A model generated the notes under the pieces. That model had not been told where the DNA came from and made no database searches. It was given only the letters and a program-made list of their open reading frames with translations. Position numbers and translations under genes: made by a program. A DNA stretch of 46,725 nt, taken from IMG/VR virus record IMGVR_UViG_2684622578_000003; one strand, 5' to 3'. Below are positions 20 to 46,725 of this stretch, piece by piece; the first letter of the stretch is position 1; every line of letters begins with the position of its first letter. This stretch comes from a virus. Taxonomy: Duplodnaviria > Heunggongvirae > Uroviricota > Caudoviricetes.

Positions 20-1315
20 TTAATTTTTCATTGCTTCGTTATGGGGCATGGTTGGGGCAAACTCGCTTAACTGTGTATTTAACAAAGCTACCTGTGCATT
101 ATTGTTTTCAGACATCCATTTTCCGTATACCTGAAATACCATTTGCGCATCTGCATGGCCCATCTGGTTTGCTATAAATGCCGGGTTAGCACCAGCTGTC
201 AGCGACCAGCAGGCATAAGTATGTCTCGACTGATATGATTTTCGATGGCGGAGTCCGGCACGTTTTATCGCTGCGTCCCACATCTGCCTTATTGAGTCAA
301 CGGTAAAATGGTCACCATAATTTTTTACTCTCGCTGACACTTCAGGTTGAAAAACAAAGGTGCATTTTTGTTTTTCTGTTCTGCCATACTCTCTGAGGTG
401 AACATCAATGATATGCTCTTTGCTCAGTCTCGTTAATGTCATCTGACTCCGGAGAGCGTCGATTGCTGGCTTAATAAGATGAATGACCCGATTGGTTCCC
501 GCCTGTGTTTTTGGTACCGTGAAACGGTCTTTTGCTAAATTTCTCCTGATCATCATTGTTCCATTTTTCAGATCTATGTCCTCCCATCCAAGTGCACACA
601 GCTCACCAGGGCGAACGCCAGTATAAACAGAAACACACCATAAATTTTTTGCTTGCTGATTTCTGCACGCATCGATAAGACGGATAAATTCTTCCCGCGA
701 AAGAGGATCCGGAATGGTTCTTGATTCCTTTAATGGCGAGATCCCCTTAAACGGATTATCTGCCAGGTAACCGTTATCAACACCAAACTGGAACACGGCG
801 TTAAGATTTGTCATGTAATTATTTACAGTTACAGCCGATCTCCCTGGTTGTGTAACAATATAGTTACTTTTGGGGATCTGGTATCCAGTCAGTAACTCTT
901 TACGAGCCTCCAGTAATTTTTCTTTATTAATCGATGAGGCAAGATTTTTTTCACCGATTATGCTCAGGATATTTTTGATGACGGCACGGTATGTGTTGAG
1001 TGATGTTTTGGCGACTTCAGTTTCTTTCAGTGCCAGAAATTTTTCAGCCAGTTCTTTTATGGTTAAATCTTGTCGGGCCTCACCAAATTTTTCCAGATTG
1101 CGTGAGGAGGGAAACTGTTTTGCATAGTCGAAAACACCAGTTTTTATTGCGTAACAAACAGAGGAGCGTAGTTCACCTGCAACGCGCCTGTTTTTTGCTG
1201 TGTCAGGAACCCCCAGATTTTCCCTGACTCTTACGCCTTTATAAACAAACCAGATACGTAATTTCCCTCCATGGTTTTCCACGCCTGTCGGATATTTCAT
1301 TTCAACTTCTCTCAT
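20..1315 (-). CDS. int: Phage tyrosine integrase (site-specific recombinase)
   Basis: 431-aa ORF with C-terminal catalytic region ending in an RHTYACW-type tyrosine motif; adjacent to an excisionase-like gene; likely true start at MKYPTG (nt 1300). Confidence 0.9.
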   Translation of the reverse strand: MREVEMKYPTGVENHGGKLRIWFVYKGVRVRENLGVPDTAKNRRVAGELRSSVCYAIKTGVFDYAKQFPSSRNLEKFGEARQDLTIKELAEKFLALKETEVAKTSLNTYRAVIKNILSIIGEKNLASSINKEKLLEARKELLTGYQIPKSNYIVTQPGRSAVTVNNYMTNLNAVFQFGVDNGYLADNPFKGISPLKESRTIPDPLSREEFIRLIDACRNQQAKNLWCVSVYTGVRPGELCALGWEDIDLKNGTMMIRRNLAKDRFTVPKTQAGTNRVIHLIKPAIDALRSQMTLTRLSKEHIIDVHLREYGRTEKQKCTFVFQPEVSARVKNYGDHFTVDSIRQMWDAAIKRAGLRHRKSYQSRHTYACWSLTAGANPAFIANQMGHADAQMVFQVYGKWMSENNNAQVALLNTQLSEFAPTMPHNEAMKN

Positions 1316-1334
1316 TAGTTAGTGTGGCTTTTAG

Positions 1335-1586
1335 TCAAGTAAGATGACGTCTTGGTCTCGCTGATGCCTGGCGCTCAATCCAGCGATCAATTTCTTCCAG
1401 GTTGTAAAAGCATGGACTGTTATCCCATGGCATACCGTCATGAGCGACATGCTTATATTCCCTTCCTTCCATAAACGATTTTTCCCGGGCCTTTTTTAAC
1501 GTACCTTTTTTTATTCCTTTCAGCGCAATTAACTGCTCTTCGGATACCCATTTGCCGGGAGAGACAATCATGATTACTTCGCTCAT
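1335..1586 (-). CDS. xis: Excisionase-like small DNA-binding protein
   Basis: 83-aa basic ORF immediately upstream of int on the same strand, 19 nt gap; position and size typical for Xis. Confidence 0.55.
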   Translation of the reverse strand: MSEVIMIVSPGKWVSEEQLIALKGIKKGTLKKAREKSFMEGREYKHVAHDGMPWDNSPCFYNLEEIDRWIERQASARPRRHLT

Positions 1587-1658
1587 CGATTTCTTTATCT
1601 CTTACATCAGACGAGCGCCGGTTGCAGAATACCAGTCACAACCGGCGACAGTTGAACA

Positions 1659-4136
1659 TTAAGAATCAGCCTGACTCGGGATCAGTTTTTGCCAGATAAC
1701 TGAAACGTATTTTGCCTGGTAACGGGCGTCATCAAGTGCATTATGGCGCTCACCTTCGAATGGAATAGCCGTTCTGGCATCGAAGTCTATGGCTTTCCCC
1801 AGCTCAACGATTGTGCGTACATCGCGATCGTTGTAGTAACGCCACGGGCAGGGGATCCCCTGCCGCTCGTATGAACGGCGCAAAATCGTGTTGTCGAAGT
1901 TGGCTCCATTTCCCCAGACCTGAACAAAAAATTCACCGGAGTTTTCGTCGATAAATTCCCGCAATTGTAACAGTGCATCATCTAACGGGATTTCATCGGT
2001 CATAATGGCAGATTGCGCTTCGCGGGATTGCTTAAGCCACCATTTAATGGTGTCCCGATCAATGACTCCGCCAGCAGTTTCCAGATCGATAGTCTTACTA
2101 AATTCCGGTCCCATATCTCCGGTTTGCGGATCGAAAAATATTGCACCTATTGAGATGATCGGGGCATCAGGATTTTTTCCCATGGTTTCAAGGTCGATCA
2201 TTAGATGGTCACACGTCCTGCTGGTGGATGTGATTTCGTGATGACCGTTCACCTTAATTGAGCGATCTGCCGTCTCGCCAGTTTCATTATCGCTATTGTG
2301 ATGCTGATTGCCGCCAGTGTTCTCCTTGTGTGGATGTTCAGCGCCTTCCATTTCCTCCGGATCATCTTCCTGAACTTCAACCTGATACTCTTCATCGAAT
2401 GTTTCTTGGTATGTTGCGTCGCCCATCACCGCGCCACAATCAGGGCAGTTGCCGCCGCCGGTCTGACCGCAGGCGGTGCAGACTTTTTCCACTTCCTGTT
2501 GCGCCACTGGTTCAGGCTGTTTCGTTTCTGGCTCGTTTTGTAACGCATTTGGACTGTTTTGTTCCGCTTTTTGGTAGTTCCGTTCCGATTCATGCTGGTT
2601 CTGGTTCACAGAATCGCGGGTCTGGATCCCCTTAACCCATTTCGGATCATTCGGGTCACTAATCCCTTCAACAAATTCACCACGTGATGCAGCAAGCAAC
2701 TTATCGGCGTCAGGCTGGCTGATATTGGCTGCCTGCATAATTTTGTTTACTTCGTCAGCGGTAACTTTTATCGGCTCTGGTTGTTCTGAATCTTCAGCGG
2801 TATCTACATTTTGCGGTAAGCCCGTGTATGTGCCATTTTTTCGGGCAAAATATTCTTCTTTTGTGATTTCAGTGGCGCCAGCAGCCAGTGCCTTATCCAG
2901 ACCAGAAAGTTTGTTTGCGCGACCGTATTTTTCTCCGTCCTTATCTGCGAAGAGGAAATAGAACGGCCCCTCACGCTCTACAGATGGTTCAGCTTCCGGC
3001 GCGGTTTCATTTTTTGGGATATCAGATACCTCAGTTTCCACTGCATCAGTTTGTGTTTCTGATGACTGGAGAACATCAACAGTGCTCAGGTCTGTTTCTT
3101 CATTCTCAAACACGCCCTTTGTCGTCAGGTATTCGCAGATATATTTGTTCAGTGCTACGGGATCTTTGTGAATGTCGATCGGACGCTCACGGACAAGGCC
3201 AAAAATAGTTTGGCGGTCGTAGCGAAGGGCATCAGGCTGTTTGCGCATTGATGCCGAGATACGCTTCCAGTCTTCGCGGTCGTTGTCGATAACTTCTTTT
3301 TTTGCCCAGCGATGGATGCTGCCGTCAATGTTTCCGGCATCCACATCACCAGGCCAGAGAGCGTAGGCCAGTTCGTCATCCAGTGTTTTCCATGTCTGCT
3401 TGTATTCGCGATGAATGGCAGCAATGACCGGGCTGATTTTTCCTGTTGAATTTTCAGTGTACTGTTGATTGGCTTTGGCGCGGGCGAGATCAACAACAGA
3501 CGTGTATTTTCCGGTTTCCTTGCGTTCACCTTCGCGACGTTTTTTCCAGATGCGCATCTCTGCCTGAATTTCGGGCCATTTAGCACCAGGAATACATTTA
3601 TGCTTAACCCACCCAATGGCGTGCAACTTAAGCTCCGGATACATGGCGTTAACTTCTGGCATTTTCATCAACGCTTCAACGATATGTCCGTCGAATGTTG
3701 CCATGTCTTCCTGCAACAATTCCTGTGCGCTAATAACCATATCAACGGTGATGTTTTCACATGTGTCGAACTTAACCATGACAGCGTTCTGTACTTCAGG
3801 GGCCAGCTTGTCAAAAGTGACGTTCATCGGATCGGATTCAGTCTCAACCGGGACAAAAGAAGCAGACTCCTCATCCCAGCGGTTTTCCTGCATATATTCA
3901 GCATCCCATGAATCGAGGGCAGGGCGGGGTATGCCAGGTTTATCCTCGCAGACAATAAATTTATAAGCGCAGTCCTGAGCAGCCGGATAATGTTCCAGGA
4001 ACTGCCAGTGAAATTTTGCTCGAGCACGGCGTTCGTCGCCAGCTTCAATGGCTGTGGCTACAGCCACAGCCACAGCGCCTTCTTCCCTTGTTGCCAGTTC
4101 GTCAGGAATAGCGGCGCAAATAAAGACTTTACTCAT
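1659..4136 (-). CDS. Large exonuclease, RecE/ExoVIII-like central region with C-terminal DEDDh-type 3'-5' exonuclease signature (full-length ydfE-like)
   Basis: 825-aa ORF; central segment KLLAASRGEFVEGISDPNDPKWVKGIQTRD recalled from RecE; C-terminus has DLETMG ... HNALDDARY motifs typical of DnaQ-like exonucleases; CTACGQTGGGNCPDCG zinc-ribbon-like motif. Confidence 0.7.
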   Translation of the reverse strand: MSKVFICAAIPDELATREEGAVAVAVATAIEAGDERRARAKFHWQFLEHYPAAQDCAYKFIVCEDKPGIPRPALDSWDAEYMQENRWDEESASFVPVETESDPMNVTFDKLAPEVQNAVMVKFDTCENITVDMVISAQELLQEDMATFDGHIVEALMKMPEVNAMYPELKLHAIGWVKHKCIPGAKWPEIQAEMRIWKKRREGERKETGKYTSVVDLARAKANQQYTENSTGKISPVIAAIHREYKQTWKTLDDELAYALWPGDVDAGNIDGSIHRWAKKEVIDNDREDWKRISASMRKQPDALRYDRQTIFGLVRERPIDIHKDPVALNKYICEYLTTKGVFENEETDLSTVDVLQSSETQTDAVETEVSDIPKNETAPEAEPSVEREGPFYFLFADKDGEKYGRANKLSGLDKALAAGATEITKEEYFARKNGTYTGLPQNVDTAEDSEQPEPIKVTADEVNKIMQAANISQPDADKLLAASRGEFVEGISDPNDPKWVKGIQTRDSVNQNQHESERNYQKAEQNSPNALQNEPETKQPEPVAQQEVEKVCTACGQTGGGNCPDCGAVMGDATYQETFDEEYQVEVQEDDPEEMEGAEHPHKENTGGNQHHNSDNETGETADRSIKVNGHHEITSTSRTCDHLMIDLETMGKNPDAPIISIGAIFFDPQTGDMGPEFSKTIDLETAGGVIDRDTIKWWLKQSREAQSAIMTDEIPLDDALLQLREFIDENSGEFFVQVWGNGANFDNTILRRSYERQGIPCPWRYYNDRDVRTIVELGKAIDFDARTAIPFEGERHNALDDARYQAKYVSVIWQKLIPSQADS

Positions 4137-4229
4137 TTTGTTTTAACCTCATGACAGATTTAAGGATGAACAAATCCCTGCCATTGCTGGCATATAAGAA
4201 TGAAACCGGATATTTATTACGGAACTGTT

Positions 4230-4421
4230 TTAAAGACCTGCCGGGATTTCGATATTATCCTGGTGAATAACTTTATCGACCGGGTAACAGTTACCGGGAA
4301 TTTTCTGTTCGGTTGCTGCAGTCATACACTCCTGCATTGTCCTGTGAACACTGACTGCAATATCAACTGGCTCTCCGGAAACAAGAAAAACTGTCAGAAC
4401 AAGCGCAAATGCTGAATTCAT
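4230..4421 (-). CDS. ydfD: YdfD-like small membrane lysis protein
   Basis: 63-aa product from internal Met (MNSAFALVLTVFLVSGEPV...) with N-terminal hydrophobic helix; start ATG overlaps dicB stop (ATGA). Confidence 0.6.
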   Translation of the reverse strand: MNSAFALVLTVFLVSGEPVDIAVSVHRTMQECMTAATEQKIPGNCYPVDKVIHQDNIEIPAGL

Positions 4422-4606
4422 TGTGCACATCCTTTTGGCATCAGACGTAAACGAGCCAGCATTGAAACAATGCATATTTTATTTAATAGCTCCCGTTCTT
4501 GTTTTCTCTTGTTAATGGCATCTTCAGTAAATACAGGGTTACTGATAGTGACACCAATTTCAAAACAACCTTCAGACGTATTAACGTTTGGTAATAACGT
4601 TTTCAT
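4418..4606 (-). CDS. dicB: Cell division inhibitor DicB (MinC-activating)
   Basis: 62-aa product MKTLLPNVNTSEGCFEIGVTISNPVFTEDAINKRKQERELLNKICIVSMLARLRLMPKGCAQ matches my recollection of DicB; GAGGA RBS upstream of ATG at 4606. Confidence 0.8.
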   Translation of the reverse strand: MKTLLPNVNTSEGCFEIGVTISNPVFTEDAINKRKQERELLNKICIVSMLARLRLMPKGCAQ

Positions 4607-29892: not shown

Positions 29893-30308
29893 GTTTTGCC
29901 CTGAAACTGGCGCGTGAGATGGGGCGACCCGACTGGCGTGCCATGCTTGCCGGGATGTCATCCACGGAGTATGCCGACTGGCACCGCTTTTACAGTACCC
30001 ATTATTTTCATGATGTTCTGCTGGATATGCACTTTTCCGGGCTGACGTACACCGTGCTCAGCCTGTTTTTCAGCGATCCGGATATGCATCCGCTGGATTT
30101 CAGTCTGCTGAACCGGCGTGAGGCTGACGAAGAGCCTGAAGATGATGTGCTGATGCAGAAAGCGGCAGGGCTTGCCGGAGGTGTCCGCTTTGGCCCGGAC
30201 GGGAATGAAGTTATCCCTACTTCCCCGGATGTGGCGGACATGACGGAGGATGACGTAATGCTGATGACAGTATCAGAAGGGATCGCAGGAGGAGTCCGGT
30301 ATGGCTGA
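29470..30308 (+). CDS. T: Tail assembly chaperone G-T fusion made by programmed -1 ribosomal frameshift
   Basis: Slippery heptamer G GGA AAG at 29868..29874 in the G zero frame; the -1 frame from 29868 is in frame with the T ORF (29919..30308). Confidence 0.8.
29868..29874 (+). other. Programmed -1 frameshift slippery site GGGAAAG
   Basis: Heptamer positioned X XXY YYZ relative to the G frame, 6 codons before the G stop; identical to the lambda G/T slip site as I recall it. Confidence 0.8.
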
Positions 30309-32880
30309 ACCGGTAGGCGATCTGGTCGTTGATTTGAGTCTGGATGCGGCCAGATTTGACGAGCAGATGGCCAGAGTCAGGCGTCATTTTTCCGGTACGG
30401 AAACTGATGCGAAAAAAACAGCGGCAGTCGTTGAACAGTCGCTGAGCCGGCAGGCGCTGGCTGCACAGAAAGCGGGGATTTCCGTCGGACAGTATAAAGC
30501 CGCCATGCGTATGCTTCCTGCACAGTTCACCGACGTGGCCACGCAGCTTGCAGGCGGGCAAAGTCCGTGGCTGATCCTGCTGCAACAGGGGGGGCAGGTT
30601 AAGGACTCCTTCGGCGGGATGATCCCCATGTTCAGGGGGCTTGCCGGTGCGATCACCCTGCCGATGGTGGGGGCCACCTCGCTGGCGGTGGCGACCGGTG
30701 CGCTGGCGTATGCCTGGTATCAGGGCAACTCAACCCTGTCCGATTTCAACAAAACGCTGGTCCTTTCCGGCAATCAGGCGGGACTGACGGCAGATCGTAT
30801 GCTGGTCCTGTCCAGAGCCGGGCAGGCGGCAGGGCTGACGTTTAACCAGACCAGCGAGTCACTGACGGCGCTGGTGAATGCCGGTGTGCGTGGTGGTGAG
30901 CAGTTTGAGGCGATCAGCCAGAGTGTGGCGCGTTTCTCCTCTGCATCCGGCGTGGAGGTGGACAAGGTCGCTGAAGCCTTCGGGAAGCTGACCACAGACC
31001 CGACGTCGGGACTGACAGCGATGGCACGTCAGTTCCATAACGTGACGGCGGAGCAGATTGCGTATGTTGCTCAGTTGCAGCGTTCCGGCGATGAAGCCGG
31101 GGCATTGCAGGCGGCGAACGAGGCCGCAACGAAAGGGTTTGATGACCAGACCCGCCGCCTGAAAGAGAACATGGGCACGCTGGAGACCTGGGCAGACAGG
31201 ACAGCACGGGCATTCAAATCCATGTGGGATTCGGTGCTGGATATTGGTCGCCCGGACACTGCCCAGGGAATGCTGGAGAAAGCAGAAAAGGCTTTTGATG
31301 AGGCGGACAAAAAATGGCAGTGGTATCAGAGCCGGAGCCACCGGCGCGGTAAAACCTCAGCATTTCTTGCCAATCTCCGGGGAGCATGGGAGGACAGAGC
31401 GAATGCGCAACTTGGACTTTCAGCCGCCACGTTGCAGGCCGATCTTGAAAAGGCCAGAGAGATGGCAGCAAAGGACTGGGTCGAGTCTGAGGCATCACGG
31501 CTGAAATATACCGAAGAGGCGCAGAAGGCTTACGAACGCCTGCAGACGCCGCTGGAGAAATATACCGCCCGTCAGGAAGAACTGAATAAGGCACTGAAAG
31601 ACGGGAAAATCCTGCAGGCAGATTACAACACGCTGATGGCGGCAGCGAAAAAGGATTATGAAGCGACGCTGAAAAAGCCGAAGCAGTCCGGCGTGAAAGT
31701 GTCTGCAGGCGATCGCCAGGAAGACAGTGCTCATGCTGCCCTGCTGACGCTTCAGGCAGAACTCCGGACGCTGGAGAAGCATGCCGGAGCGAATGAGAAA
31801 ATCAGCCAGCAGCGCCGGGATTTGTGGAAGGCGGAGAGTCAGTTCGCTGTACTGGAGGAGGCGGCACAACGTCGCCAGCTGTCCGCACAGGAGAAATCCC
31901 TGCTGGCGCATAAAGATGAGACGCTGGAGTACAAACGCCAGCTGGCTGCACTTGGCGACAAGGTTACGTATCAGGAGCGCCTGAACGCGCTGGCGCAGCA
32001 GGCGGATAAATTCGCACAGCAGCAACGGGCAAAACGGGCCGCCATTGATGCGAAAAACCGGGGGCTGACTGACCGGCAGGCAGCGCGGGAAGCCACAGAA
32101 CAGCGTCTGAAGGAACAGTATGGCGATAATCCGCTGGCGCTGAATAACGTCATGTCAGAGCAGAAAAAGACCTGGACGGCTGAAGACCAGCTTCGCGGGA
32201 GCTGGATGGCAGGCCTGAAGTCCGGCTGGAGTGAGTGGGAAGAGAGCGCCACGGACAGTATGTCGCAGGTTAAAAGTGCAGCCACGCAGACCTTTGATGG
32301 TATTGCGCAGAATATGGCGGCGATGCTGACCGGCAGTGAGCAGAACTGGCGCAGCTTCACCCGTTCCGTGCTGTCCATGATGACAGAAATTCTGCTTAAG
32401 CAGGCAATGGTGGGGATTGTCGGGAGTATCGGTAGCGCCATTGGCGGGGCTGTTGGTGGCGGCGCATCCGCATCAGGCGGTACAGCCATTCAGGCAGCTG
32501 CGGCGAAATTCCATTTTGCGACCGGAGGATTTACGGGAACCGGCGGCAAATATGAGCCAGCGGGGATTGTTCACCGTGGTGAGTTTGTCTTCACGAAGGA
32601 GGCAACCAGCCGGATTGGCGTGGGGAATCTTTACCGGCTGATGCGCGGCTATGCCACCGGCGGTTATGTCGGTACACCGGGCAGCATGGCAGACAACCGG
32701 TCGCAGGCGTCCGGGACGTTTGAGCAGAATAACCATGTGGTGATTAACAACGACGGCACGAACGGGCAGATAGGTCCGGCTGCTCTGAAGGCGGTGTATG
32801 ACATGGCCCGCAAGGGTGCCCGTGATGAAATTCAGACACAGATGCGTGATGGTGGCCTGTTCTCCGGAGGTGGACGATGA
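30301..32880 (+). CDS. H: Tail tape measure protein H
   Basis: 859 aa, long alpha-helical/Ala-rich protein following G-T; matches recalled lambda gpH. Confidence 0.95.
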   Translation: MAEPVGDLVVDLSLDAARFDEQMARVRRHFSGTETDAKKTAAVVEQSLSRQALAAQKAGISVGQYKAAMRMLPAQFTDVATQLAGGQSPWLILLQQGGQVKDSFGGMIPMFRGLAGAITLPMVGATSLAVATGALAYAWYQGNSTLSDFNKTLVLSGNQAGLTADRMLVLSRAGQAAGLTFNQTSESLTALVNAGVRGGEQFEAISQSVARFSSASGVEVDKVAEAFGKLTTDPTSGLTAMARQFHNVTAEQIAYVAQLQRSGDEAGALQAANEAATKGFDDQTRRLKENMGTLETWADRTARAFKSMWDSVLDIGRPDTAQGMLEKAEKAFDEADKKWQWYQSRSHRRGKTSAFLANLRGAWEDRANAQLGLSAATLQADLEKAREMAAKDWVESEASRLKYTEEAQKAYERLQTPLEKYTARQEELNKALKDGKILQADYNTLMAAAKKDYEATLKKPKQSGVKVSAGDRQEDSAHAALLTLQAELRTLEKHAGANEKISQQRRDLWKAESQFAVLEEAAQRRQLSAQEKSLLAHKDETLEYKRQLAALGDKVTYQERLNALAQQADKFAQQQRAKRAAIDAKNRGLTDRQAAREATEQRLKEQYGDNPLALNNVMSEQKKTWTAEDQLRGSWMAGLKSGWSEWEESATDSMSQVKSAATQTFDGIAQNMAAMLTGSEQNWRSFTRSVLSMMTEILLKQAMVGIVGSIGSAIGGAVGGGASASGGTAIQAAAAKFHFATGGFTGTGGKYEPAGIVHRGEFVFTKEATSRIGVGNLYRLMRGYATGGYVGTPGSMADNRSQASGTFEQNNHVVINNDGTNGQIGPAALKAVYDMARKGARDEIQTQMRDGGLFSGGGR

Positions 32881-33909: not shown

Positions 33910-34653
33910 ATGACACAGACAGAATCAGCGATTCTGGCGCACGCCCGGCGATGTGCGCCAGCGGAGTCGTGCGGCTTCGTGGTAAGCACGTCGGAGGGGG
34001 AAAGATATTTTCCCTGCGTGAATATCTCCGGTGAGCCGGAGGCGTATTTCCGTATGTCGCCGGAAGACTGGCTGCAGGCAGAAATGCAGGGTGAGATTGT
34101 GGCGCTGGTCCACAGCCACCCCGGTGGTCTGCCCTGGCTGAGTGAGGCCGACCGGCGGCTGCAGGTGCAGAGTGATTTGCCGTGGTGGCTGGTCTGCCGG
34201 GGGACGATTCATAAGTTCCGCTGTGTGCCGCATCTCACCGGGCGGCGCTTTGAGCACGGTGTGACGGACTGTTACACACTGTTCCGGGATGCTTATCATC
34301 TGGCGGGGATTGAGATGCCGGACTTTCATCGTGAGGATGACTGGTGGCGTAACGGCCAGAATCTCTATCTGGATAATCTGGAGGCGACGGGGCTGTATCA
34401 GGTGCCGTTGTCAGCGGCACAGCCGGGCGATGTGCTGCTGTGCTGTTTTGGTTCATCAGTGCCGAATCACGCCGCAATTTACTGCGGCGACGGCGAGCTG
34501 CTGCACCATATTCCTGAACAACTGAGCAAACGAGAGAGGTACACCGACAAATGGCAGCGACGCACACACTCCCTCTGGCGTCACCGGGCATGGCGCGCAT
34601 CTGCCTTTACGGGGATTTACAACGATTTGGTCGCCGCATCGACCTTCGTGTGA
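33910..34653 (+). CDS. K: Tail assembly protein K (JAB/MPN and NlpC/P60-like)
   Basis: 247 aa with HSHPGG motif; lambda gpK-like. Confidence 0.9.
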   Translation: MTQTESAILAHARRCAPAESCGFVVSTSEGERYFPCVNISGEPEAYFRMSPEDWLQAEMQGEIVALVHSHPGGLPWLSEADRRLQVQSDLPWWLVCRGTIHKFRCVPHLTGRRFEHGVTDCYTLFRDAYHLAGIEMPDFHREDDWWRNGQNLYLDNLEATGLYQVPLSAAQPGDVLLCCFGSSVPNHAAIYCGDGELLHHIPEQLSKRERYTDKWQRRTHSLWRHRAWRASAFTGIYNDLVAASTFV

Positions 34654-35222
34654 AAACGGGGGCTGAAGCCATCCGGGCACTGGCCACACAGCTCCCGGCG
34701 TTTCGTCAGAAACTGAGCGACGGCTGGTATCAGGTACGGATTGCCGGGCGGGACGTCAGCACGTCCGGGTTAACGGCGCAGTTACATGAGACTCTGCCTG
34801 ATGGCGCTGTGATTCATATTGTTCCCAGAGTCGCCGGGGCCAAGTCAGGTGGCGTATTCCAGATTGTCCTGGGGGCTGCCGCCATTGCCGGATCATTCTT
34901 TACCGCCGGAGCCACCCTTGCAGCATGGGGGGCAGCCATTGGGGCCGGTGGTATGACCGGCATCCTGTTTTCTCTCGGTGCCAGTATGGTGCTCGGTGGT
35001 GTGGCGCAGATGCTGGCACCGAAAGCCAGAACTCCCCGTACACAGACAACGGATAACGGTAAGCAGAACACCTATTTCTCCTCACTGGATAACATGGTTG
35101 CCCAGGGCAATGTTCTGCCTGTTCTGTACGGGGAAATGCGCGTGGGGTCACGCGTGGTTTCTCAGGAGATCAGCACGGCAGACGAAGGGGACGGTGGTCA
35201 GGTTGTGGTGATTGGTCGCTGA
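34551..35222 (+). CDS. I: Tail assembly protein I
   Basis: 223 aa MAATHTLPLASPGMARICLYGDLQRFGRRIDLRV...; overlaps K 3' end as in lambda. Confidence 0.9.
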   Translation: MAATHTLPLASPGMARICLYGDLQRFGRRIDLRVKTGAEAIRALATQLPAFRQKLSDGWYQVRIAGRDVSTSGLTAQLHETLPDGAVIHIVPRVAGAKSGGVFQIVLGAAAIAGSFFTAGATLAAWGAAIGAGGMTGILFSLGASMVLGGVAQMLAPKARTPRTQTTDNGKQNTYFSSLDNMVAQGNVLPVLYGEMRVGSRVVSQEISTADEGDGGQVVVIGR

Positions 35223-35282: not shown

Positions 35283-38200
35283 ATGGGTAAAGGAAGCAGT
35301 AAGGGGCATACCCCGCGCGAAGCGAAGGACAACCTGAAGTCCACGCAGTTGCTGAGTGTGATCGATGCCATCAGCGAAGGGCCGGTTGAAGGTCCGGTGG
35401 ATGGATTAAAAAGCGTGCTGCTGAACAGTACGCCGGTGCTGGACACTGAGGGGAATACCAACATCTCCGGTGTCACGGTGGTGTTCCGTGCCGGTGAGCA
35501 GGAGCAGACACCGCCGGAGGGGTTTGAATCCTCCGGCTCCGAGACGGTGCTGGGTACGGAAGTGAAATATGACACGCCGATCACCCGCACCATCACGTCT
35601 GCAAACATCGACCGTCTGCGCTTTACCTTCGGCGTGCAGGCACTGGTGGAAACCACCTCAAAGGGGGACCGGAATCCGTCGGAAGTCCGCCTGCTGGTTC
35701 AGATCCAGCGTAATGGTGGCTGGGTGACGGAAAAAGACATCACCATTAAGGGCAAAACCACCTCGCAGTATCTGGCCTCGGTGGTGGTGGGTAACCTGCC
35801 GCCGCGCCCGTTCAATATACGGATGCGCAGGATGACGCCGGACAGCACCACAGACCAGCTGCAGAACAAAACGCTCTGGTCGTCATACACCGAAATCATC
35901 GATGTGAAACAGTGCTACCCGAACATGGCACTGGTCGGCGTGCAGGTGGATTCGGAGCAGTTCGGCAGCCAGCAGGTGAGCCGTAATTATCATCTGCGCG
36001 GGCGCATTCTGCAGGTGCCGTCGAACTATAACCCGCAGACGCGGCAATACAGCGGTATCTGGGACGGAACGTTTAAGCCAGCATACAGCAACAACATGGC
36101 CTGGTGTCTGTGGGATATGCTGACCCATCCGCGCTACGGCATGGGGAAACGTCTTGGTGCGGCGGATGTGGACAAATGGGCGCTGTATGTCATCGGCCAG
36201 CATTGCGATCAGTCGGTGCCGGACGGTTTTGGCGGCACGGAGCCGCGCATCACCTGTAATGCGTACCTGACCACACAGCGCAAGGCGTGGGATGTGCTCA
36301 GTGATTTCTGCTCTGCGATGCGCTGTATGCCGGTATGGAACGGGCAGACGCTGACGTTCGTGCAGGACCGACCGTCGGATAAGGTGTGGACCTATAACCG
36401 CAGTAATGTGATGATGCCGGATGATGGTGCGCCGTTCCGCTACAGCTTCAGCGCCCTGAAGGACCGCCATAATGCCGTTGAGGTGAACTGGATTGACCCG
36501 AATAACGGCTGGGAGACGGCGACAGAGCTTGTGGAGGACACGCAGGCCATTGCCCGTTACGGTCGTAACGTCACGAAGATGGATGCTTTTGGCTGTACCA
36601 GCCGGGGGCAGGCACACCGCGCCGGGCTGTGGCTGATTAAAACAGAACTGCTGGAAACGCAGACCGTGGACTTCAGCGTGGGTGCCGAAGGGCTTCGCCA
36701 TGTACCGGGCGATGTCATTGAAATCTGCGATGATGACTATGCCGGTATCCGCACCGGCGGGCGCGTGCTGGCGGTAAACAGCCAGACCCGGACGCTGACG
36801 CTCGACCGTGAAATCACGCTGCCATCTTCCGGCACCACGCTGATAAGCCTGGTTGACGGGCAGGGGAGTCCGGTCAGCGTGGAGGTTCAGTCCGTCACCG
36901 ACGGCGTGAAGGTGAAAGTGAGCCGTGTTCCTGACGGCGTTGCTGAATACAGCGTATGGGGGCTGAAGCTGCCGACGTTGCGCCAGCGCCTGTTCCGCTG
37001 CGTGAGTATCCGTGAGAACGACGACGGCACGTATGCCATCACCGCCGTGCAGCATGTACCGGAAAAAGAGGCCATCGTGGATAACGGGGCGCACTTTGAC
37101 GGCGACCAGAGCGGCACGGTAAATGGTGTCACGCCGCCAGCGGTGCAGCACCTGACCGCAGAAGTCACCGCAGACAGCGGGGAGTATCAGGTGCTGGCCC
37201 GCTGGGACACGCCGAAGGTGGTGAAGGGCGTGAGCTTCCTGCTTCGCCTGACCGTGGCAGCGGATGACGGCCGTGAGCGGCTGGTCAGCACGGCCCGGAC
37301 GACGGAAACCACTTACCGCTTCACACAACTGGCTCTGGGGAACTACAGGCTGACAGTCCGGGCAGTAAATGCGTGGGGGCAGCAGGGCGATCCGGCGTCG
37401 GTATCGTTCCGGATTGCCGCACCGGCAGCGCCGTCGCGGATTGAGCTGACGCCGGGCTATTTTCAGATAACCGCCACGCCGCATCTTGCGGTTTATGACC
37501 CGACGGTACAGTTTGAGTTCTGGTTCTCGGAAAAACGGATTGCGGATATCAGGCAGGTTGAAACCAGCGCGCGTTATCTTGGTACGGCACTGTACTGGAT
37601 AGCCGCCAGTATCAATATCAAACCGGGCCATGATTATTATTTTTACGTTCGCAGTGTGAACACCGTTGGCAAATCGGCATTCGTGGAGGCTGTCGGTCAG
37701 CCGAGTGATGATGCATCAGGCTATCTGGATTTTTTCAAAGGCGAGATAGGGAAAACCCATCTGGCTCAGGAGCTGTGGACGCAGATTGATAACGGTCAGC
37801 TTGCGCCTGACCTGACTGAAATCAGGACGTCCATAACGGATGTCAGCAATGAAATAACACAGACCGTCAATAAGAAACTGGAAGACCAGAGTGCAGCGAT
37901 CCAGCAGATACAGAAGGTTCAGGTTGATACAAATAATAACCTGAACAGCATGTGGGCAGTGAAGCTGCAGCAGATGCAGGACGGACGCCTTTATATTGCG
38001 GGTATCGGTGCCGGTATTGAGAACACCCCCGACGGCATGCAGAGTCAGGTGCTGCTGGCGGCAGACAGGATTGCGATGATTAATCCTGCAAATGGCAACA
38101 CAAAACCGATGTTTGTTGGTCAGGGTGATCAGATATTCATGAACGACGTGTTCCTGAAACGCCTGACGGCTCCCACCATTACCAGCGGTGGAAATCCGCC

Positions 38201-38762
38201 GGCATTTTCCCTGACACCAGACGGAAAGCTGACCGCTAAAAATGCGGATATCAGTGGCAGTGTGAATGCGAACGCCGGGACGCTCAACAATGTCACGATT
38301 AATGAAAACTGTCAGATTAAGGGGAAACTGTCAGCCAATCAGATTGAAGGCGATATTGTCAAAACAGTGGGTAAGGCTTTCCCGCGGGACTCCCGGGCAC
38401 CGGAGCGGTGGCCATCAGGGACCATTACCGTCAGGATTTATGACGATCAGCCGTTTGACCGGCAGATTGTTATTCCGGCGGTGGCATTCAGCGGTGCTAA
38501 ACATGAGAGAGAGCATACTGATATTTACTCCTCATGCCGCCTGATAGTGAAGAAAAATGGTGCTGAAATTTATAACCGTACCGCGCTGGATAATACGCTG
38601 ATTTACAGTGGTGTTATTGATATGCCAGCTGGTCACGGCCACATGACGCTGGAGTTTTCGGTGTCAGCATGGCTGGTAAATGACTGGTATCCCACAGCAA
38701 GTATCAGCGATTTGCTGGTTGTGGTGATGAAGAAAGCCACCGCAGGCATCAGTATCAGCTGA
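35283..38762 (+). CDS. J: Tail tip host-specificity protein J
   Basis: 1159 aa [37 protein letters not shown]...; N-terminal about 1000 aa match recalled lambda gpJ; C-terminal region differs. Confidence 0.95.
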
Positions 38763-38829: not shown

Positions 38830-39429
38830 ATGCGTAAAGTTTGTGCAGCCATTTTGTCCACAGCCATCTGTCTGGCCGTATCCGGTGCGCCTGCATGGGC
38901 GTCTGAGCAGCAGGCCACACTGAGCGCAGGGTATCTTCATGCCCGTACGAACGCTCCCGGCAGCGATAATCTGAACGGGATTAACGTGAAATACCGTTAT
39001 GAGTTTACGGACACGCTGGGGCTGATTACGTCATTCAGTTATGCCAACGCTGAAGATGAGCAAAAAACGCATTACAGCGATACCCGCTGGCATGAAGATT
39101 CCGTGCGTAACCGCTGGTTCAGCGTGATGGCGGGGCCGTCTGTGCGCGTGAATGAATGGTTCAGCGCGTATGCGATGGCGGGTATGGCTTACAGCCGTGT
39201 GTCGACTTTCTCCGGGGATTATATCCGCGTAACTGACAACAAGGGGAAAACGCACGATGTGCTGACCGGAAGTGATGACGGTCGCCACAGCAACACGTCT
39301 CTGGCGTGGGGAGCTGGCGTGCAGTTTAACCCGACCGAATCCGTGGCCATTGATATTGCTTATGAAGGCTCCGGCAGTGGTGACTGGCGCACTGACGGTT
39401 TCATCGTGGGTGTCGGTTATAAATTCTGA
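38830..39429 (+). CDS. lom: Outer membrane protein Lom (Ail/Lom family)
   Basis: 199 aa with signal peptide ([11 protein letters not shown]) and beta-barrel-like alternating pattern ending in GYKF. Confidence 0.9.
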
Positions 39430-39487: not shown

Positions 39488-42400
39488 GTGAATATGGCAG
39501 TAAAGATTTCAGGTGTACTGAAAGACGGCACAGGAAAACCGGTACAGAACTGCACAATCCAGCTGAAAGCAAAACGTAACAGTACCACTGTGGTGGTGAA
39601 CACGCTGGCCTCAGAAAATCCGGATGAAGCCGGGCGTTACAGCATGGACGTTGAGTACGGTCAGTACAGCGTTATTCTGTTGGTGGAAGGATTCCCGCCG
39701 TCACATGCCGGGACCATCACCGTGTATGAAGATTCTCAACCCGGTACGCTGAATGATTTTCTCGGTGCCATGACGGAGGATGATGCCCGTCCGGAGGCAC
39801 TGCGTCGTTTTGAACTGATGGTGGAAGAGGTGGCGCGTAACGCGTCCGTGGTGGCACAGAACACGGCAGCCGCAAAGAAGTCAGCCAGTGATGCCAGCAC
39901 ATCTGCCAGTGAGGCGGCAACCCGTGCGACTGATGCTGCAGATTCAGCACGTGCAGCCAGCACGTCAGCCGGACAGGCCGCGTCGTCGGCTCAGTCAGCG
40001 TCTTCCAGCGCAGGAACGGCATCAACAAAGGCCACTGAAGCATCAAAAAGTGCTGCCGCTGCAGAGTCCTCAAAAAGCGCGGCGGCTACCAGTGCCGGTG
40101 CGACGAAAACGTCAGAAACGAATGCGGCAGCGTCAGAACAATCAGCCGCCACTTCTGCATCCACCGCGACCACGAAAGCGTCAGAAGCTGCCACCTCAGC
40201 CAGGGATGCGTCGGCTTCAAAAGAGGCGGCAAAATCATCAGAAACGAACGCATCATCAAGCGCCAGTAGTGCAGCTTCCTCGGCAACGGCGGCAGGAAAT
40301 TCCGCGAAGGCGGCAAAGACGTCTGAGACAAACGCCAGGTCCTCTGAAACGGCAGCAGCACAGAGTGCCTCCGCAGCAGCAGGCTCAAAAACAGCGGCTG
40401 TGTCGTCGGCCAGTGCCGCGTCAACAAGTGCCGGGCAGGCCTCAGCCAGTGCCACCGCCGCCGGAAAATCGGCAGAAAGCGCCGCGTCGTCCGCTTCAAC
40501 AGCCACAACGAAGGCTGGCGAAGCCGCTGTACAGGCCAGCGCAGCAGCGAGGTCTGCTTCCGCAGCGAAGACATCCGAGACGAACGCGAAAGCGTCGGAA
40601 ACCAGCGCAGAATCCTCAAAAACGGCTGCCGCATCGTCCGCCAGTTCGGCGGCGTCATCGGCATCATCTGCGTCTGCTTCAAAAGATGAGGCGACCAGAC
40701 AAGCGTCCGCAGCGAAGGGCAGCGCCACGACGGCATCCACGAAGGCGACAGAGGCAGCTGGCAGTGCGACGGCGGCAGCTCAGAGCAAAAGTACGGCGGA
40801 ATCCGCGGCAACGCGGGCTGAGACAGCGGCAAAACGGGCAGAGGATATTGCATCCGCCGTGGCGCTTGAGGATGCGAGCACGACGAAAAAGGGGATAGTA
40901 CAGCTCAGCAGTGCGACCAACAGCACTTCCGAGTCACTGGCGGCAACGCCAAAGGCAGTAAAATCAGCCTATGACAATGCAGAGAAACGTCTGCAGAAAG
41001 ACCAGAACGGCGCTGATATACCCGATAAGGGACGCTTCCTGAACAACATTAACGCGGTCAGTAAAACAGACTTTGCTGATAAGCGTGGTATGCGTTATGT
41101 GCGGGTTAACGCTCCTGCAGGTGCAACATCTGGAAAATATTACCCTGTTGTTGTTATGCGTTCTGCTGGCTCAGTAAGCGAACTGGCATCAAGGGTCATT
41201 ATCACCACGGCAACGCGAACCGCAGGCGATCCGATGAATAACTGCGAGTTTAACGGATTTGTTATGCCTGGCGGCTGGACTGACAGGGGGCGTTATGCTT
41301 ATGGAATGTTCTGGCAATATCAAAATAATGAACGAGCCATCCACTCAATAATGATGAGTAATAAGGGCGATGATTTGCGCTCTGTGTTCTATGTTGATGG
41401 CGCAGCTTTCCCTGTTTTTGCGTTTATCGAAGATGGCCTGTCAATATCCGCACCTGGTGCTGATCTCGTTGTTAATGATACGACCTATAAGTTTGGGGCA
41501 ACAAATCCGGCGACTGAATGTATCGCGGCGGACGTTATCCTTGATTTTAAGAGTGGGCGTGGTTTTTATGAGTCTAATTCGTTAATCGTTAACGATAACT
41601 TGTCGTGCAAAAAACTTTTTGCCACAGACGAAATTGTAGCGCGTGGTGGTAATCAGATTCGAATGATAGGTGGGGAGTATGGTGCATTATGGCGTAATGA
41701 TGGCGCTAAAACTCACCTGCTGCTTACCAATCAAGGTGATGTTTATGGTGGCTGGAATACATTAAGACCGTTTTCTATTGATAACGCAACCGGCGAACTG
41801 GTTATTGGAACCAAACTGTCCGCAAGTCTGAACGGTAATGCATTAACAGCAACAAAGCTGCAAACGCCAAGACGGGTTTCTGGTGTTGAGTTTGATGGTT
41901 CCAAAGATATTACTTTAACCGCCGCGCATGTGGCTGCTTTTGCCAGAAGGGCAACGGATACATATGCCGATGCGGATGGTGGCGTTCCATGGAATGCCGA
42001 ATCAGGCGCTTACAATGTCACTCGCTCTGGCAACAGCTATATTCTGGTTAACTTCTATACCGGAGTCGGAAGTTGCCGGACCCTGCAGATGAAGGCGCAT
42101 TACAGAAATGGTGGTCTGTTCTACCGTTCTTCAAGAGACGGTTATGGTTTTGAGGATGACTGGGCAGAAGTTTATACCTCGAAAAATCTTCCACCAGAAA
42201 GCTACCCAGTCGGCGCACCAATCCCGTGGCCATCAGATACCGTTCCGTCTGGCTATGCCCTGATGCAGGGGCAGACTTTTGACAAATCTGCATACCCGAA
42301 ACTTGCAGTGGCTTATCCGTCAGGCGTTATTCCTGATATGCGTGGCTGGACGATTAAGGGCAAGCCCGCCAGTGGTCGTGCCGTATTGTCTCAGGAACAG

Positions 42401-42844
42401 GACGGCATTAAATCGCACACCCACAGCGCCAGCGCATCCAGTACGGATTTGGGGACGAAAACCACATCATCGTTTGATTACGGCACTAAATCCACGAATA
42501 ACACTGGTGCACATACCCATAGTGTTAGCGGTACGGCTGCTTCAGCCGGTGCACATACCCATTCGATGACATTTGTTTCAGGTGGTTCCAGTGGTGCTCC
42601 GGGAAGTGGATCACCTGATTATTCTAAATACAGTGTTAACACTTCTTCTGCAGGCGCTCATACGCACTCTGTATCGGGTACTGCTGCAAGCGCAGGTGCA
42701 CACGCACATACTGTCGGTATTGGTGCTCATACGCACTCCGTTGCGATTGGCTCACATGGACACACCATCACCGTTAACGCTGCTGGTAACGCGGAAAACA
42801 CCGTCAAAAACATCGCATTTAACTATATTGTGAGGCTTGCATAA
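39488..42844 (+). CDS. stf: Side tail fibre protein Stf
   Basis: 1118 aa; long Ala/Ser/Thr-rich repeat region (about aa 130-450) and C-terminal GAHTHS His-x-His repeats typical of phage tail fibre tips; followed by tfa. Confidence 0.9.
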
Positions 42845-43419
42845 TGGCATTCAGAATGAGTGAACAACCACGGACCATAACAATTTATAATCTGCTGGCC
42901 GGAACTAATGAATTTATTGGTGAAGGTGATGCATATATTCCGCCTCATACAGGTCTGCCAGCAAACAGTACCGATATTGCACCGCCAGATATTCCGGCTG
43001 GCTTCGTGGCTGTTTTCAACAGTGATGAGTCATCGTGGCATCTCGTTGAAGATCATCGGGGTAAAACGGTTTATGACGTGGCTTCCGGCGACGCGTTATT
43101 TATTTCTGAACTCGGTCCGTTACCGAAAAATGTTACCTGGTTATCGCCGGAAGGGGAGTTTCAGAAGTGGAACGGCACAGCCTGGGTGAAGGATACGGAA
43201 GCAGAAAAACTGTTCCGGATCCGGGAGGCGGAAGAAACAAAAAACAACCTGATGCAGGTAGCCAGTGAGCATATTGCGCCGCTTCAGGATGCTGCAGATC
43301 TGGAAATTGCAACGGAGGAAGAAATCTCGTTGCTGGAAGCATGGAAAAAGTATCGGGTATTGCTGAACCGTGTTGATACGTCAACTGCACAGGATATTGA
43401 ATGGCCAGCACTGCCGTAG
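42844..43419 (+). CDS. tfa: Tail fibre assembly protein Tfa
   Basis: 191 aa [48 protein letters not shown]...; ATAATGG overlap with stf. Confidence 0.9.
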
Positions 43420-43516
43420 GGTAAAACATATAAATTCTTTAATTAGATGTATCTTTCCATTTACGGCAAGGAAGGGGGCTTGGAAGACGTAAAGCATCTC
43501 ACACCGAGATTATTTT

Positions 43517-44107
43517 TTATATGTCAGGTGTCTGAAGTTTTGCTTTGGCTCTTAAAATGGTTTGCCGCGAGGTTTTGAATTCCCGGGCAATGGCACTTAT
43601 ACTTACACCTGACTTAATTCGTTCGAATACCACCTGTTTCTGTTCTTCATTTAACACAGGTGGTCGACCAAAACGTTTCCCTGCGCCGCGGGCTCTTACT
43701 ATCCCGGAATGAGTGCGTTCAAGTAAAAGGTCTCGTTCAAATTCAGCAACTGCTGAAATTACTTGCATCATCATTTTTCCTGTTGGACTGGTCAAGTCAA
43801 TGCCCCCCAATGCTAAGCAATGCACTCTGATACCTGTTTCGGTCAGTTGTTCCACTGTTTTCCTGATATCCATTGCATTACAACCAAGGCGATCCAGTTT
43901 TGTCACAATCAATTGATCACCACATTTCAGGCGAGCAAGCAACCGGTTAAAACCAGGACGCTCACTGGTTGCTGCTGAGCCGCTAATGTGTTCTTCGATT
44001 ATTTGCTGAGGTTTGATTTTAAAACCTGCACTTTCGATTTCCCGGCGTTGATTTTCGGTGGTCTGATCCAGCGTTGATATCCGACAGTAAGCAAAAATTC
44101 GAGACAT
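43517..44107 (-). CDS. pin: Serine recombinase, Pin/Gin/Hin-type DNA invertase
   Basis: 196 aa [25 protein letters not shown]... with catalytic Ser in the CRISTLDQ motif and C-terminal HTH. Confidence 0.9.
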
Positions 44108-44423
44108 AGTGAGACTCTATACGAAATTGGTGTTCATATCATAATGCATCGCAGAAAATAATTTTGATTATTTTTGTGCATATTTGTATGTACACGTTCG
44201 AAAATAAACGAATGCGTATGCAACCCCGTAATTTTGGTGAGACCCAAAATCGATTTTGTGAAAAATGGCTTTAACTCGGTTTGTTTTTCGAGTTCCGGGC
44301 GGACTCAAGGAAGAAGAATAGTGTTTCGTGTTATTTTAACCAGATTTTAAGTTGTTTGGTCGTGGAAAAGTGGAGCAAAATGTTGTTAAAGTGGAAAAAT
44401 GATAAAAAAGTAAGTTTATTATA

Positions 44424-45441: not shown

Positions 45442-46725
45442 ATGGATTTCCAGTTATATTCGCTCGGCGCAGCGTTAGTGTTTCATGAAATATTTTTTCC
45501 TGAATCATCAACGGCAATGGCGTTAATTCTGGCAATGGGAACCTACGGTGCAGGTTATGTGGCGCGTATTGTCGGAGCATTTATTTTCGGCAAAATGGGC
45601 GACAGAATAGGGCGTAAAAAAGTGCTCTTTATTACCATCACCATGATGGGGATCTGTACCACCTTAATTGGTGTGTTACCGACCTATGCACAGATTGGTG
45701 TTTTTGCACCCATCTTGCTGGTGACGTTGCGTATTATTCAGGGGTTGGGTGCAGGTGCGGAAATTTCCGGTGCCGGTACGATGCTGGCGGAATATGCGCC
45801 AAAAGGTAAGCGCGGAATTATCTCCTCATTTGTGGCTATGGGAACTAACTGCGGAACCTTGAGCGCAACGGCAATCTGGGCCTTTATGTTCTTCATTCTC
45901 AGTAAAGAGGAACTGCTGGCGTGGGGATGGCGTATACCGTTCCTGGCGAGCGTTGTCGTGATGGTCTTTGCTATCTGGTTACGTATGAATCTGAAAGAAA
46001 GCCCGGTCTTTGAGAAGGTTAATGACAGCAACCAACCCACAGCAAAACCTGCACCTGCTGGTAGCATGTTCCAGAGCAAATCCTTCTGGCTGGCAACAGG
46101 GCTGCGTTTTGGTCAGGCGGGTAACTCCGGGTTAATTCAGACTTTCCTTGCAGGCTATTTAGTGCAGACGTTATTGTTTAACAAAGCAATTCCAACAGAT
46201 GCATTGATGATTAGTTCGATTCTCGGCTTTATGACCATTCCGTTCCTTGGTTGGTTATCCGATAAAATTGGTCGCCGGATCCCGTATATTATTATGAATA
46301 CCTCCGCGATTGTGCTGGCATGGCCAATGCTTTCTATCATTGTAGATAAAAGCTATGCCCCGAGCACCATTATGGTTGCACTGATTGTGATTCATAACTG
46401 TGCGGTGCTGGGATTATTTGCTCTGGAAAACATTACCATGGCAGAAATGTTCGGCTGTAAAAACCGCTTTACCCGGATGGCTATTTCTAAAGAAATTGGT
46501 GGTCTTATCGCTTCCGGTTTTGGTCCTATCCTGGCGGGTATTTTCTGCACCATGACGGAATCCTGGTATCCGATCGCCATTATGATCATGGCATATTCAG
46601 TAATTGGTTTAATCTCTGCGCTGAAAATGCCAGAGGTGAAAGACCGTGATTTAAGTGCGCTGGAAGACGCTGCGGAAGATCAACCGCGTGTTGTAAGAGC
46701 TGCGCAACCTTCCAGAAGTCTGTAA
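45442..46725 (+). CDS. ydfJ: MFS metabolite:H+ symporter family transporter (ShiA/KgtP-like), apparently lacking the first TM helix; YdfJ-like
   Basis: 427-aa ORF with multiple TM helices and GxxxDRxGRK(K) MFS motif (GKMGDRIGRKK) near its N-terminus; compared with ShiA the first about 40 aa are missing; ORF ends at the window end with a stop. Confidence 0.8.
   Translation: MDFQLYSLGAALVFHEIFFPESSTAMALILAMGTYGAGYVARIVGAFIFGKMGDRIGRKKVLFITITMMGICTTLIGVLPTYAQIGVFAPILLVTLRIIQGLGAGAEISGAGTMLAEYAPKGKRGIISSFVAMGTNCGTLSATAIWAFMFFILSKEELLAWGWRIPFLASVVVMVFAIWLRMNLKESPVFEKVNDSNQPTAKPAPAGSMFQSKSFWLATGLRFGQAGNSGLIQTFLAGYLVQTLLFNKAIPTDALMISSILGFMTIPFLGWLSDKIGRRIPYIIMNTSAIVLAWPMLSIIVDKSYAPSTIMVALIVIHNCAVLGLFALENITMAEMFGCKNRFTRMAISKEIGGLIASGFGPILAGIFCTMTESWYPIAIMIMAYSVIGLISALKMPEVKDRDLSALEDAAEDQPRVVRAAQPSRSL

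Follow-up and report, generated by a model that had tools for sequence, protein, structure and literature searches.

The window analysed here, the whole 46,725-nucleotide stretch of IMG/VR record IMGVR_UViG_2684622578_000003, is a lambdoid prophage of E. coli in integrated order, bounded by an integrase gene on the left and, on the right, by a probable MFS transporter gene of the host. Plaque-forming phages, among them PhiR42_1, Kati, and PhiR34_1, match it over its entire length at 96-98% identity. The tail genes are arranged as in lambda (tape measure, K, I, J, lom, stf, tfa; Table 1), and the genes around J (K, I, lom, stf, and tfa) are intact. The order J-lom is common to lambda, 434, VT1-Sakai, and PhiR55_1, and the terminator-like hairpin present here after J has an annotated counterpart at the same spot in phages 21 and 434. 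Together, stf and tfa give this tail a second determinant of host range. After tfa comes a resolvase-family gene; an invertible tail-fibre segment near this gene was considered and rejected, as positions 41500-44300 contain no inverted repeat of at least 14 nt.

Table 1. Positions of gene J, its parts, and its neighbours in the window.
Feature	Position	Strand	Evidence or remark
Tape-measure gene	30301-32880		Upstream of J
K-like gene	33910-34653		Upstream of J
I gene	34551-35222		Directly upstream of J
Gene J, tail tip attachment / central tail fibre protein	35283..38762	+	Intact ORF, 1159 aa; ORF list, Pfam, phmmer
J aa 1-820, hub domains and two FNIII/Ig domains, lambda-type	35283..37742	+	97.6% aa identity to lambda J; DNA 92-99% to lambda, 434, PhiR30_1, PhiR55_1
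J aa 821-870, alpha-helical shaft with 28-aa insertion relative to lambda, phage-21 type	37743..37892	+	28 gap columns in alignment with lambda J
J aa 872-1000, beta-prism central straight fibre (Phage_Tail_Tip)	37896..38282	+	PF09327, 106 bits
J aa 1029-1159, Ig-like RBD of the 1A2 / VT1-Sakai / PhiR55_1 allele class, predicted OmpC binder	38367..38759	+	PF12421, identity matrix, AF2, Foldseek
Terminator-like hairpin and T-run right after the J stop codon	38781..38805	+	Terminator scan and sequence read
lom (Ail/Lom outer-membrane protein), downstream neighbour of J	38830..39429	+	PF06316, 416 bits
stf, side tail fibre, 1118 aa, intact	39488-42844	+	Pfam phage_tail_N, Gp34_trimer, Collar, Phage_fiber
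tfa, tail-fibre assembly gene	42844-43419	+	Pfam Caudo_TAP

The product of J has the full domain set of a lambda-type gpJ. Comparison with lambda J from PDB entry 8iyk (8iyk_J) by phmmer gives E=0, and six Pfam models (FNIII-A_GpJ, Phage-tail_3, Ig_J, Ig_J_second, Phage_Tail_Tip, and Ig_GpJ_C) all score above their curated cut-offs in the expected lambda-J order, which runs from the hub (Phage-tail_3, FNIII-A) through two Ig/FNIII domains, the helical shaft, and the Phage_Tail_Tip prism to Ig_GpJ_C. The last of these models, PF12421, has the title [quoted passage not shown] and matches aa 1029-1159 over profile positions 1-135 of 135, with 127.2 bits against a cut-off of 26.2. The naming of aa 821-870 as the shaft is taken from the domain map of Ge & Wang 2024 (PMC11101478). 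Relative to lambda J (P03749; 8iyk, 8xcj, 8xck), which binds LamB, the domain order and the fold of the receptor-binding domain (RBD) are the same, but the shaft is 28 aa longer.

When aligned with the lambda reference (NC_001416, 15505-18903; also P03749), J is 97.6% identical over aa 1-820. Identity is then 41% over the 22 aligned positions of aa 821-870, which also hold the 28-aa insertion, 68.5% over aa 871-1000, 60% over aa 1001-1030, and 41.9% over aa 1031-1159 (43.3% over the last 150 aa). A sequence-only reading of this DNA had pointed to divergence from lambda in about the last 150 residues, citing a peptide that is the exact C-terminus of the J ORF, and this divergence is real. Within one gene, identity falls from 98% to 42% in protein and from 92-99% to 51-59% in DNA, which is far beyond chance. 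The same reading took about the first 1000 residues to match lambda; this is correct for approximately the first 820, but the break comes already at about aa 821, where the insertion lies. The region it had marked, 38200-38762, does span aa 973-1159, although position 38200 is not codon-aligned.

Sliding DNA identity against six reference J genes shows that J is a mosaic. Nucleotides 1-2400 of the gene have lambda as their best match (92-99%), while nt 2401-2880, including the 28-aa insertion, best match phage 21 (OL657228) and PhiR55_1 (PV340571) at 91-97%, compared to 19-73% for lambda. In the part encoding aa 821-870, identity to phage 21 and PhiR55_1 is 95-97%, against 19-68% to lambda; the shaft insertion is common to phage 21, to which the DNA for aa 801-960 is 92-96% identical. 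Phage 21-type sequence extends from aa 821 to about aa 960 and is followed by a short lambda/A8-like island at aa 961-1000 (nt 2881-3000, 94-95% DNA identity) before the swapped RBD, for which nt 3121-3480 best match VT1-Sakai and PhiR55_1 (93-100%, with lambda at 51-56%). The phages closest over the remaining genome match J only to nt 3041-3100, which indicates that the RBD module was exchanged by recombination near aa 1014-1040. The last approximately 130 residues of J are best explained as a recombinationally swapped RBD module that has lambda's Ig-like fold but comes from another natural allele class, a very common one. That lambdoid prophages exchange the specificity region of J as a module was described in 2018 from 1207 homologues, mostly in prophages, with clades defined by indels at lambda residues 1012, 1048/1049, 1077/1078, and 1107 (PMC6646904).

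The allele classes of the RBD are well separated. In a tblastn search of 50,697 phage records with the last 156 aa of J, matches to the tip were found in 243 records and fell into discrete identity bands (57 records at >=80%, 88 at 60-80%, and 98 at <60%). Over aa 1030-1159, the RBD is 99.2% identical to that of PhiR55_1, which has no reported receptor, and 96.2% identical, with no gaps, to that of J from the VT1-Sakai prophage, which uses OmpC in the form of gpJ 1A2; the window protein and 1A2 have the same Ig_GpJ_C domain and are placed in the same allele class. The next nearest class, at 63.5%, is that of phage 21, a LamB user, whose RBD is set apart from this one by a 5-residue insertion and a 4-residue deletion. 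A8 gpJ, an OmpC user that corresponds to the J C-terminus of PhiR30_1, has the same fold and is 97.8% identical over aa 985-1029, but its RBD is only 60.3% identical and there are two indels in aa 1030-1159. The RBD of phage 434 (OL657226) is 41.7% identical, 5 aa longer, and in a separate allele class; 434, cited as an OmpC user (PMC12502783), has a lambda-type J with a swapped RBD that targets OmpC. Identity to the lambda class (lambda, HK630, DE3) is 41.5%, and one residue is missing from the loop at lambda A1106/D1107.

J of PhiR55_1 resembles the window protein in its length of 1159 aa, in the 28-aa shaft insertion, and in the gene order J-lom-stf. The two RBDs differ only at K1090R, nine more differences lie in aa 955-1025, and the J genes are 95.3% identical in DNA. 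Since PhiR55_1 is a plaque-forming phage, its nearly identical RBD indicates that this RBD allele is functional. In a search for receptor data on the PhiR panel, the only paper naming PhiR55.1 gives ManYZ and SNIPE phenotypes and no outer-membrane receptor. The recorded hosts of the PhiR phages that carry this RBD class are E. coli C or ECOR13 and never K-12, which is a circumstantial observation; 434-type PhiR phages do have K-12 as a recorded host.

The AF2 monomer model of aa 990-1159 has a mean pLDDT of 79.3, with block means of 86-97 over most of the beta-sandwich core. The homologous protein set used for its alignment consists mostly of C-terminal fragments and served for this alignment and for polymorphism counts, not for counts of full-length genes. 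Foldseek matches the model to 9wca, 9wcb, 8xck, and 8xcj with probability 1.00 and TMq 0.68-0.72, consistent with an Ig-like beta-sandwich, and the E values against 9wcb and 8xcj are 1e-15 to 1e-18. The predicted fold of the tip domain therefore matches the solved tips of both lambda and A8 gpJ. These entries include lambda J closed, without LamB (8xck), lambda J bound to LamB (8xcj), and closed A8 gpJ without OmpC (9wca), while 9wcb is known here by its entry title, [quoted passage not shown].

The receptor use of the 1A2 allele has been determined in delivery experiments. Brodel et al. 2024 replaced the C-terminus of lambda J from residue 964 with the natural prophage variants A8 and 1A2 in order to redirect lambda particles from LamB to OmpC (PMC11338833). 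In MG1655 delta-lamB delta-ompC supplied with one of 23 OmpC variants in trans, 1A2 particles showed delivery of >75% with 20 of the 23 variants, including G17 (EDL933), and <=2% with G1 (the MG1655 / K-12 variant), G2, and G40; on wild-type MG1655, in which LamB is present, delivery was 5.2% at MOI 50. A8 accepts K-12 OmpC, while 1A2 does not (PMC11338833). The 1A2 chimera is also the basis of an anti-O157 delivery vector (bioRxiv 2025.02.28.640725).

The C-terminus of gpJ 1A2 comes from J of the E. coli O157:H7 Sakai Stx1 prophage (VT1-Sakai, AP000400). The gpJ 1A2 DNA in the supplement is recoded (68% DNA identity) and was machine-read with many small indels; tblastn split it into three frames, which were stitched by hand for translation. 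Over aa 985-1159 this translation matches VT1-Sakai J at 100% identity, which shows that the stitching is sound and the comparison valid, and that 1A2 is the O157 Sakai-type allele. The 1A2 data are direct evidence that this allele class uses OmpC, not LamB, and discriminates among OmpC variants. Given an RBD nearly identical to one whose use of OmpC was measured, the most likely receptor of this J is predicted, with good confidence, to be OmpC and not LamB, and the K-12 variant of OmpC is probably a poor receptor for the class. The possibility of an outer-membrane receptor other than LamB, raised in the sequence-only reading, is supported but not proven by this comparison, since the argument is one of homology and five substitutions separate J from 1A2. 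Two other sources were considered for the receptor. A 2026 receptor-prediction preprint is of no help here, as it covers GpJ of Drexlerviridae and omits lambda's C-terminal domain, and the EHEC siphophage phi330, which uses OmpC on K-12, is not direct evidence, as the closest phage, WGPS6, has a 434-type J tip.

The five substitutions in the RBD relative to 1A2 are I1052V, R1076K, K1090R, D1134N, and S1157T (window residue first), and two of them are at specificity hot spots of lambda: R1076 aligns with V1048, a hot spot of both indels and mutations, and D1134 aligns with D1107. Among the residues corresponding to lambda 997, 1012, 1048, and 1107, only P1040 (lambda 1012) is identical in the window protein and 1A2, while I1025, R1076, and D1134 are L, K, and N in 1A2. 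Upstream of the RBD, aa 992-1029 are A8/lambda-like rather than 1A2-like (86.7% to 1A2), and identity over the full 1A2 graft, from lambda residue 964 onward, is approximately 93.5%. Lambda gains OmpF only with three changes, two of them at residues 1012 and 1107, and D1107 is one of two residues indispensable for the switch (PMC6646904). The native receptor of phage 21 is LamB, and one J mutation enables it to use OmpC; the RBDs of phage 21 (LamB) and A8 (OmpC) are 80% identical. Receptor use in the J family is labile, in that a few mutations can suffice to change the receptor. This lability, together with the two hot-spot differences, keeps the assignment to OmpC at likely, and leaves a small chance that the receptor profile is shifted and a very small one that the receptor is LamB.

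A shifted profile would mean that R1076 and D1134, plus I1025, give receptor use unlike that of 1A2, extending to K-12-type OmpC, to OmpF, or to two porins. The two RBD positions are those that in lambda are critical or hot spots for receptor switching, position 1134 is polymorphic within the class (D in 9, N in 11, and G in 13 of 33 cluster representatives), and the receptor range of phage 21 is altered by single mutations. However, all five changes are conservative or are common natural polymorphisms within one class, and there are zero indels relative to 1A2/VT1-Sakai. In addition, A8 and 1A2 are only 59% identical, yet both use OmpC, which shows that OmpC use is robust over far larger distances than the one considered here. 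A shift of this kind is accordingly improbable, and the five substitutions would be expected to leave the receptor unchanged. A related suggestion, offered tentatively and still doubtful, is that D1134 (D/N/G in the class) and R1076 may influence which of the natural OmpC variants can serve as receptor. If this is true, the host range of the D/R allele would be measurably unlike that of 1A2, the characterised N/K allele, and might extend to K-12-type OmpC or to a second porin, and the class would be a natural record of an arms race between J and OmpC at the positions that drive lambda's receptor switch in the laboratory.

It is very unlikely that the C-terminal domain is only a functional variant of the lambda type that continues to use LamB, in the manner of phage 21. 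The domain family and fold are the same as those of lambda's RBD, and the phage 21 RBD, which uses LamB natively, is 47.6% identical to lambda's and closer than that to this one (63.5%, as given above). Against this, the 96%-identical 1A2 RBD supported only the low delivery described above on MG1655 with LamB, and 1A2 works in delta-lamB cells given a suitable OmpC; the low RBD identity to lambda and the indel at the lambda 1106/1107 hot spot point the same way. Least probable of all, to the point of being nearly negligible, is that J belongs to a decaying prophage and that its divergent end no longer serves a function. Defective lambdoid prophages are frequent in E. coli and VT1-Sakai's own J is split by mutation, but J and its neighbours are intact here, viable PhiR55_1 carries an RBD one substitution away, and the whole window is close to plaque-forming phages.

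With OmpC as the predicted receptor, the solved complexes of lambda with LamB and of A8 with OmpC offer an analogy for how this J might act. In lambda, four bottom loops of the trimeric RBD enter the LamB trimer; the RBDs then move apart, the beta-prism twists, and the shaft flips, followed by dissociation of the FNIII strings and opening of the tip (PMC11101478). The J trimer of the window phage would similarly present three Ig-like domains at the tail tip, and these would engage a trimeric porin, here OmpC, by docking their bottom loops into its extracellular mouth. Porin binding would spread the three domains, twist the beta-prism fibre, and flip the helical shaft, and the tail tip would then open for DNA ejection. 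The conformational trigger would thus be the same as in lambda and A8.

In annotation, the tail tip of this prophage is best described as an adsorption device of the OmpC type and not of the LamB type. An OmpC-type tip predicts a host range that tracks OmpC variants and the side tail fibre, not expression of the maltose regulon. The polymorphism at the position equivalent to lambda 1107 is a small, testable lead for engineers of J chimeras for DNA delivery. The differing receptor-binding end itself is real but ordinary, being a widespread and catalogued allele: the exact protein is in RefSeq, the receptor of the class was determined in 2024 (PMC11338833), and exchange of J modules was described in 2018 (PMC6646904). 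The exact 1159-aa J is WP_053276144.1, a member of a 90%-identity cluster of 34,633 members, and is encoded on the E. coli draft assembly GCA_001268385.1. When a 1.2-kb probe running from the last part of J into the first part of lom was compared with 5,426 complete E. coli genomes, 2,848 of them gave an alignment spanning at least 80% of the probe, so that roughly half hold sequence matching this J end.

The whole window (1-46725) is a complete-looking lambdoid prophage with the gene order of the integrated form, and the MFS transporter ORF at its end is probably host flank. Its closest phage is PhiR42_1, with an early region that is 98.6% identical. Since the PhiR42_1 match within the tail-tip gene J ends at J nt 3041, the receptor-binding module has been exchanged relative to this nearest relative. 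The α-helical shaft of J carries an insertion of four heptads' worth of residues relative to lambda; phage 21, PhiR55_1, and the VT1-Sakai prophage have this insertion too, and the shaft that flips at tail opening would be correspondingly longer. The VT1-Sakai J gene is annotated as split by mutation, and its C-terminus is also that of the engineered, OmpC-targeting lambda chimera gpJ 1A2; therefore, the allele used in engineering matches one that the VT1-Sakai prophage itself carries in broken form.

Features of the tail region and prophage ends, with the VT1-Sakai J gene
Feature	Location	Strand	Basis or annotation
Integrase	window 20-1315	-	
J shaft insertion, 28 residues	window 37779-37877 (J aa ~833-865)		comparison with lambda J
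Side tail fibre gene, intact, long, 1118 aa	window 39488-42844	+	
Resolvase/DNA-invertase family gene	window 43517-44107	-	Pfam Resolvase + HTH_7
MFS transporter ORF	window 45442-46725		
VT1-Sakai prophage J gene	L004 (AP000400) 999-4471		two truncated CDSs

In phages with switchable fibres, Pin/Gin/Cin-type invertases are located just after the tail-fibre assembly gene, and here a resolvase/DNA-invertase family gene directly adjoins that gene, following it. A search of window 41500-44300 found no inverted repeats of at least 14 nt, and hence nothing to indicate an invertible segment. In the side tail fibre, the conserved N-terminal domain is followed by an Ala/Ser/Thr-rich low-complexity stretch (~350-400 residues), and repeats rich in histidine (GAHTHS and variants) lie towards the C-terminus. 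In lambda PaPa the corresponding gene, stf, is frameshifted, whereas the one in the window is intact; the tail of this phage therefore probably has working side fibres, which would co-determine host range.
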